Assembly: GCF_017348835.2 (NCBI RefSeq)
Contig: NZ_CP072317.1
Length of the DNA: 64,000 bases
Direction: 5' to 3' (one strand)
Source: Escherichia coli
GTDB lineage: Bacteria; Pseudomonadota; Gammaproteobacteria; Enterobacterales; Enterobacteriaceae
Shown here: positions 50,722 through 51,263 of the stretch, one piece after another
Position numbering within the stretch: position 1 is the stretch's first letter
How the letters are laid out: every line of letters starts with the position of its first letter
Position numbers and translations under genes: made by a program
The notes under the pieces: model-generated
Seen by the model: the letters and a program-made list of their open reading frames with translations, nothing else
The model's database searches: none
What the model was told of the DNA's origin: nothing

Positions 50722-50760
50722 AGTACACTATGAAGGTGTATGATACCTTCATAGTGCTTA
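50722..50760 (-). terminator. rho-independent terminator after the truncated gene
   Basis: Hairpin CACTATGAAGG..CCTTCATAGTG followed by a T-run on the minus strand. Confidence 0.55.
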
Positions 50761-50765
50761 AGTAA

Positions 50766-51263
50766 TTATGAGTAATATAATCTGTGTAAACTACTAATTG
50801 CTTCACCGTCAGTGATTAAATGCGTAGCTGTTCCTTGTCTTATATAATACCTATTTTCAAAATGACAGACTTCTCCGACACTTTTTATTTCGATTTTTAA
50901 AACATGCAGTCCTTCATATGAACATAATGAAATATCTTTTAGTATTTGTTGTTTCAAAGCCTCATTAAAATTAAATGATTCTATTTTTTGTTTTATGAAC
51001 AGAAAGTAATTATCTATGTTTTTTGATTGAATTACAGCTTCATGATCAATTCCATTGATATAATAGCCATTGCACTCAATAGGGGTAACACCATATAAAG
51101 TCTTAACTCTGTCTGCCGTAGCTTTGGTATCGGAAACACCAACTAAAATATAACCATTAGATTCTCTACCGATGTTATTTATGGCGACAGCCGTTTGGAC
51201 TATATTAATGAAACATTCTTCGTCTATTTTATTCTCGCCTGAGAGAATAAATAATCCCTGTTT
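50766..51263 (-). pseudogene. 5'-truncated gene remnant of unknown function, cut by the IS1 end
   Basis: Frame open from 51263 to stop at 50766 with no ATG; ORF track lists only the last 63 codons (TTG start). Confidence 0.45.

Follow-up and report, generated by a model that had tools for sequence, protein, structure and literature searches.

A 3′ remnant of a DUF262–AlbA_2 gene at an R100-type IS1 junction in an Escherichia coli plasmid

The DNA analyzed here (referred to as the window) is a stretch of 64,000 nucleotides from Escherichia coli (contig NZ_CP072317.1 of assembly GCF_017348835.2), and the locus of interest is an open frame that borders on the end of an insertion sequence (Table 1). 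On the minus strand, from 51263 to 50766, translation gave 165 sense codons followed by TAA (166 codons with the stop), in agreement with the earlier note on this DNA, which had been made from the letters alone and had described an AT-rich frame of at least 166 codons that runs into an IS1 end without a start codon. The remaining five frames of the same interval contained 9–20 stops apiece, and the chance of 165 stop-free codons was approximately 4e-7 at the local G+C content of 31%. The AT-richness was evident from a comparison of the G+C contents of the fragment and window: 30.9 and 51.1%, respectively. As the earlier note had stated, the frame reaches the IS1 end without a start codon: the first in-frame ATG, GTG, or TTG in the fragment was a TTG at 50957 (codon 104), with 63 amino acid residues left. 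Upstream of 51263, the frame continued for five codons into IS1 (VGVIT) and then reached an in-frame TAA at 51279–51281. When the 165-residue product alone was compared with Pfam, a match with SLFN_AlbA_2 was detected at 29.0 bits, just over the gathering score of 25.3.

The TAA at 51279–51281 is the stop codon of the IS1 gene insB, located within the IS1 stub, and the remnant continues the reading frame of insB, with KQGLF following the junction. In plasmid R100, which carries a complete IS1 at this position, insB points the same way as the remnant, with nothing but the insB stop between them. This shared reading frame is probably a coincidence.

The frame is followed by a hairpin (50757–50725) that begins 8 nt past the TAA and consists of a 13-bp stem with 5 G-C pairs and a 7-nt loop; the stem is followed by ACTTTTTTAC, with six T. 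The fold energy was −22.2 kcal/mol (z = −5.2), none of 200 shuffled sequences was as stable, and the same hairpin was detected by a terminator pattern scan. The hairpin and T-tract (50757–50715) are predicted to act as a strong rho-independent terminator, and the clean terminator noted previously behind the frame was therefore borne out. From 51263 to 50584, that is, through the terminator, the window was 100% identical to positions 6001–6680 of pEC00688_3 (L003). A scan of 49000–51500 against Rfam (E ≤ 1) gave two chance-level matches, MIR395 and CrcZ, both far under the gathering scores, and no known RNA was found in or beside the remnant in this range. When the flanking non-coding sequence (49701–50780) was searched for repeats within the window, only a 34-bp match was obtained.

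Table 1. Features at and around the remnant and at the opposite IS1 boundary in the window
Feature	Position	Strand	Evidence or remark
parM	47749–48711	+	partition locus
parR	48711–49064	+	partition locus
Rho-independent-type terminator of the gene (predicted)	50715–50757	-	fold and pattern scan; same sequence 3′ of the intact gene in pEC00688_3
3′ remnant of the gene, codons 426–590 and TAA	50766–51263	-	translation; 100% match to the C-terminus of WP_001262767
IS1 stub, 83 bp, IRR end, starting GGTAATGACTCC…; R100 "IS1b" junction	51264–51346	-	100% match to R100 IS1
IS26, 820 bp, truncating IS1	51347–52166	+	terminal repeats GGCACTGTTGCAAA and TTTGCAACAGTGCC; likewise annotated in p2_W2-5
IS1 IRL-end fragment, 476 bp, R100 "IS1a" side	58960–59435	-	99.8% vs R100 L005 4015–4490
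Backbone downstream of pemK	59436–59628	-	ends 91 bp before the expected DUF262 start codon
pemK	59629–59961	-	upstream neighbour of the gene in intact plasmids
pemI	59963–60220	-	upstream neighbour of the gene in intact plasmids

The location "next to the partition locus" given in the earlier note holds only loosely, since the end of parR is approximately 1.7 kb from the remnant and other features lie between them: a small ORF and a pseudogene of the relE/parE toxin family (~49596–49830), which carries the PGAP label "frameshifted; internal stop" in the identical sequence of p2_W2-5. On the other side, the IS1 end abutting the frame is real and starts at 51264, but just 83 bp of this IS1 is left, the rest having been cut off by IS26. 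The second IS1 fragment of the window has the same orientation as this stub, and its end abuts the backbone downstream of pemK at 59435/59436. Of the gene described below, the first 425 codons were absent from the window and, in comparison with R100, 1375 bp was missing (L005 2640–4014), comprising the promoter region and codons 1–428. Because the IS1 end at the new junction is intact, this loss would most likely have occurred by an IS1-mediated adjacent deletion or by recombination with another IS1 inserted there.

Between the two IS1 fragments, 54193–58929 is composed of IS26-bounded pieces with a 5′-truncated blaTEM and two further IS26 copies; erm(B) is at 56521–57294, and a fragment of a Tn3-family transposase is fused to IS26 at 58324–58929. 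Relative to the CTX-M-55 of p2_W2-5, the product of blaCTX-M (52536–53411) shows the differences A80V and D242G (precursor numbering), and we take it to be CTX-M-3-like, not CTX-M-15 or CTX-M-55 as in the nearest plasmids. These nearest plasmids were F33-type CTX-M-55 plasmids such as p2_W2-5, and the best match was a CTX-M-15 plasmid (NZ_CP098194.1).

The homology search proposed in the earlier note for finding the intact gene in related plasmids was successful: the remnant corresponded to residues 426–590 of a 590-residue "DUF262 domain-containing protein" (WP_001262767) with 100% identity. The intact gene is 1773 bp long (e.g. pEC00688_3 L003:4726–6498) and is located directly downstream of pemI/pemK in pEC00688_3, p33673_IncF, and p14EC033f. 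When the fragment was compared with 72,556 plasmid records by tblastn, 1,035 matched, 979 of them at ≥99% identity, and in a few of the matching records the fragment was within an annotated "DUF262 domain-containing protein". The insertion site was uninterrupted in only 116 plasmid records, vs approximately 1,000 with the remnant. More than 1,400 relatives of the parent protein were found. Among those listed, the full-length relatives were approximately 585–650 residues in length (most 587–610) and came from Pantoea, Serratia, Cronobacter, Enterobacter, Vibrio, Aeromonas, and more distant bacteria; shorter relatives were few, and the four that were read were IS-truncated copies or partial calls.

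At the DNA level, a 704-bp query matched 2,125 plasmid records, vs 1,035 for the protein fragment, indicating that approximately 1,000 further plasmids share some part of the query at the DNA level only. The plasmids with DNA-only matches were from Klebsiella, Citrobacter, Yersinia, and others, many at 90–99% identity.

The origin of the truncation was revealed by a comparison with R100. Positions 46560–51346 of the window, which run from a methylase gene past parMR and the remnant to the end of the IS1 stub, were 100% identical to R100 (L001 1–4787); R100 has a complete IS1 at this junction, with catA1 behind it. R100 also carries the 5′ half of the gene, as an annotated 436-residue "DUF262 domain-containing protein" that starts just after pemK and runs into a second IS1. 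The two halves are located at the outer ends of two IS1 copies and share a 9-bp duplication, AAACAGGGA, with which the 5′ half closes and the 3′ half opens: one junction reads …GATTTTAAACAGGGA followed by GGTGATGCTGCC, the other GGAGTCATTACC followed by AAACAGGGATTATT…, and the uninterrupted insertion-site sequence is GATTTTAAACAGGGATTATT. A 9-bp target duplication is the signature of IS1 transposition. When the R100 halves were rejoined and one copy of the duplication was dropped, a 1773-bp ORF was restored, with no amino acid difference from WP_001262767 (pEC00688_3). In the window, the break in the coding sequence coincides with the outermost base of the IS1 terminal inverted repeat (GGTAATGACTCCAAC… from 51264), and AAACAGGGA survives as a single copy at 51255–51263, because the other copy has been deleted. 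The truncation by IS1, as claimed previously, was confirmed by these junctions. The IS1-bounded resistance determinant of R100 is known as Tn2670.

The public annotation offers a different reading, in which the remnant is a complete small gene. It is labeled "RNA-binding domain-containing protein" (WP_072163778; 167 residues) in some plasmids and "hypothetical protein" in others, and PGAP calls a 167-residue CDS in p2_W2-5 that maps to 51269–50766 of the window, with an ATT start (51269–51267) inside the IS1 repeat. A stand-alone AlbA_2 protein of this kind would agree with the CDS call, with the fragment alone clearing the Pfam AlbA_2 gathering score, and with a GGAG that precedes the ATT. 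However, initiation at ATT is very rare, and just 2 nt separate the GGAG from it; since the start is supplied by IS1, such a gene could not predate the insertion. Furthermore, the rejoined R100 halves give exactly the 590-residue protein, the shorter relatives that were read were truncated or partial, and the break takes away three invariant residues at the front of the domain (E419, Y423, and F425). The stretch between IS26 and the fragment yielded no promoter-like site. The complete small protein with an in-frame start and RBS that the earlier note had set against its own reading was also not found in the fragment, which contains no canonical start with a usable RBS. The lengths of the listed full-length relatives, together with the lack of a usable start, argue against a complete small gene, and we consider the 167-residue gene very improbable. 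The intact-CDS entries are probably an annotation artefact, in view of the IS1-supplied start, the lack of an upstream promoter-like site, the length of the relatives, and the clipped domain; these database entries should be treated as pseudogenes.

A shorter internal product of 63 residues, translated from the TTG at 50957, is scarcely credible. This TTG is in frame and has a GAGG just upstream, and one weak promoter-like match (9/12) was found inside the fragment at 51226→51199, but shuffled sequences had a mean of 3.4 such sites, so that a single one is no more than expected by chance. Just 2 nt separate the GAGG from the TTG, the resulting peptide would cover no more than the final third of a domain, and the family alignment gave no sign of an internal start. 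Truncation by IS26 or by a random deletion, with the IS1 stub incidental, might be suggested by the IS26 at a distance of 83 bp and the three IS26 copies in the resistance region, but it has virtually no standing and was refuted by the R100 comparison: the coding sequence stops precisely at the outermost base of the IS1 repeat, and R100 has the same junction next to a complete IS1, with the matching copy of the 9-bp duplication on the other gene half.

The interval is thus almost certainly a non-functional 3′ pseudogene fragment of a 590-codon IncFII gene that was split by the IS1-flanked resistance determinant of R100. An IncFII ancestor carried the AT-rich 590-codon gene just downstream of pemI/pemK. 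Decades ago, the IS1-flanked determinant transposed into codons 426–428 with duplication of the 9 bp; the 5′ part of the gene then adjoined one IS1, and the 3′ part, which kept its terminator, the other. At the level of sequence, this split is demonstrated by the R100 junctions. Later, in the lineage of the present plasmid, IS26 trimmed the 3′-side IS1, a truncation to 83 bp that is directly visible in the window, and the 5′ part was lost together with 91 bp upstream beside the other IS1. This loss is likewise plain from the window; the mechanism proposed above is our inference. The earlier note had regarded the frame as a remnant of cargo older than the IS1 insertion. It is indeed a remnant cut by IS1, but the parent is an accessory gene of the IncFII backbone adjacent to pemIK, not the cargo of another element. 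With neither a start codon nor its own promoter, a stop five codons upstream, and a clipped conserved motif, the remnant is presumably neither translated nor functional; it would persist only through the youth of the lineage.

The R100-type boundary between IS1 and the backbone is already known, as is the gene fragment in public annotation. The IS1/backbone boundary of R100 is reported to be common to all IncF33 plasmids, with their variable region downstream of pemI/pemK (PMC10654068); the R100-type junction is not discussed in PMC5052281. The remnant represents a scar common to approximately 1,000 resistance plasmids, and, since this scar marks descent of the variable region from an R100-type IS1-flanked insertion, it is useful as a lineage marker.

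The parent protein contains a GmrSD_N/DUF262 domain at residues 26–165 (70.9 bits) and an AlbA_2 domain at residues 420–573 (27.8 bits) in Pfam, corresponding to an N-terminal ParB-like NTPase, a helical middle part, and a C-terminal Schlafen-type domain. PADLOC gave matches over the N-terminal part with NsnA (9e-22) and PD-T4-2_A (1e-18). No DUF1524 (His-Me finger) nuclease domain was detected in the parent by Pfam at E ≤ 0.1, and NCBIfam gave no meaningful family. A sequence search against PDB chains returned nothing at E ≤ 1, and the structural leads came from fold comparison only. In the AlphaFold model (mean pLDDT of 85.5), the best PDB matches of the N-terminal part were BrxU, SspE, and the N-domains of ParB (CTPase), and those of the C-terminal part were DIP2311 (3lmm) and the N-domains of Schlafen 11/13; these scores were weak, with a best E of 9e-4 and whole-chain TM-scores of approximately 0.18. 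In an alignment of 24 relatives, conservation runs on through the breakpoint, and E419, Y423, F425, K426, Q427, and G428, which straddle it, were invariant. Since this motif (E419…Y423-D-F-K-Q-G428) spans the break, the one domain remaining in the remnant, AlbA_2, is itself clipped.

A literature search on DUF262, IncF, and pemK brought up no paper in which a function is assigned to the parent protein. By domain and fold resemblance, this protein would most likely act alone in defence or exclusion by targeting nucleic acids, in the manner of GmrSD/BrxU/SspE, in which case an NTP-binding DUF262 sensor would be coupled to an AlbA_2 effector that binds or cleaves, replacing the usual DUF1524 nuclease. 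The intact parent, a widespread GmrSD_N–AlbA_2 protein beside pemIK, is a reasonable candidate for a defence gene.

A full-length chromosomal homologue with 69% identity was found in a prophage-like region of Cronobacter malonaticus (L008 8001–9776), flanked by an integrase/Gam/methylase module on one side and P2-type tail genes on the other; this prophage-associated position is typical of defence cargo. Across plasmid lineages, the parent gene is broken at at least five positions (near residues 95, 105, 265, 288, and 425/428), as judged from four proteins (P0002, P0063, P0073, and P0075) and five plasmid matches (H71–H75). One broken form of 336 residues, with 1100 member sequences, carries IS1 sequence at each end. 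Insertions recur in the gene or in the AT-rich DNA after pemK.

A further-reaching proposal, which we regard as unlikely, is that the parent is an uncharacterised one-protein defence/exclusion system (DUF262 NTPase plus AlbA_2), encoded next to pemIK in IncFII plasmids, whose gene was broken multiple times in multidrug-resistance lineages. If the protein restricts incoming resistance DNA or is costly, the breaks could reflect selection against the gene, and the remnant in the window would then be a fossil of gene loss. Alternatively, the repeated breaks could be explained by an AT-rich target of IS1. More remotely still, the clipped AlbA_2 domain may be expressed and active.

In comparison with known Schlafen/AlbA_2 proteins, including DIP2311 and the N-domains of SLFN11/13, the remnant scores above the SLFN_AlbA_2 gathering threshold and the C-terminal part of the parent model is alignable. 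On the other hand, the identities are 8–15%, and the domain left in the window, truncated at its first conserved motif, is presumably not expressed as a gene. The GmrSD-family type IV enzymes, BrxU, and SspE combine DUF262 with DUF1524. The parent shares with them the DUF262/GmrSD_N domain, including the DGMQR motif at residues 71–75, and BrxU and SspE were the best (weakly scoring) structural matches of its model. In contrast, its C-terminus is AlbA_2 and, lacking the defining nuclease domain of GmrSD, the parent is not classed as a GmrSD enzyme. The window has no DUF262 part: the GmrSD_N/DUF262 domain and the length of approximately 590 residues belong to the parent, and no match to L003 4635–6000 was found in the window, which consequently holds a fragment of a member of the GmrSD_N–AlbA_2 family and not a member.

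Relative to the intact WP_001262767/WP_001262766 of IncF plasmids, the window has an identical terminator and identical final 165 residues (100%), but residues 1–425 with the GmrSD_N domain, the promoter, and the start codon are absent. One of the closest known counterparts is the backbone junction of R100 (NR1) on the IS1b/catA1 side, with which the window is identical base for base from the methylase gene and parMR through the first 83 bp of IS1. The two differ in that the IS1 of the window is cut by IS26, IS26-bounded modules (blaCTX-M, ΔblaTEM, and erm(B)) replace the original resistance determinant, and R100 keeps the 5′ half of the gene, which the present plasmid has lost.
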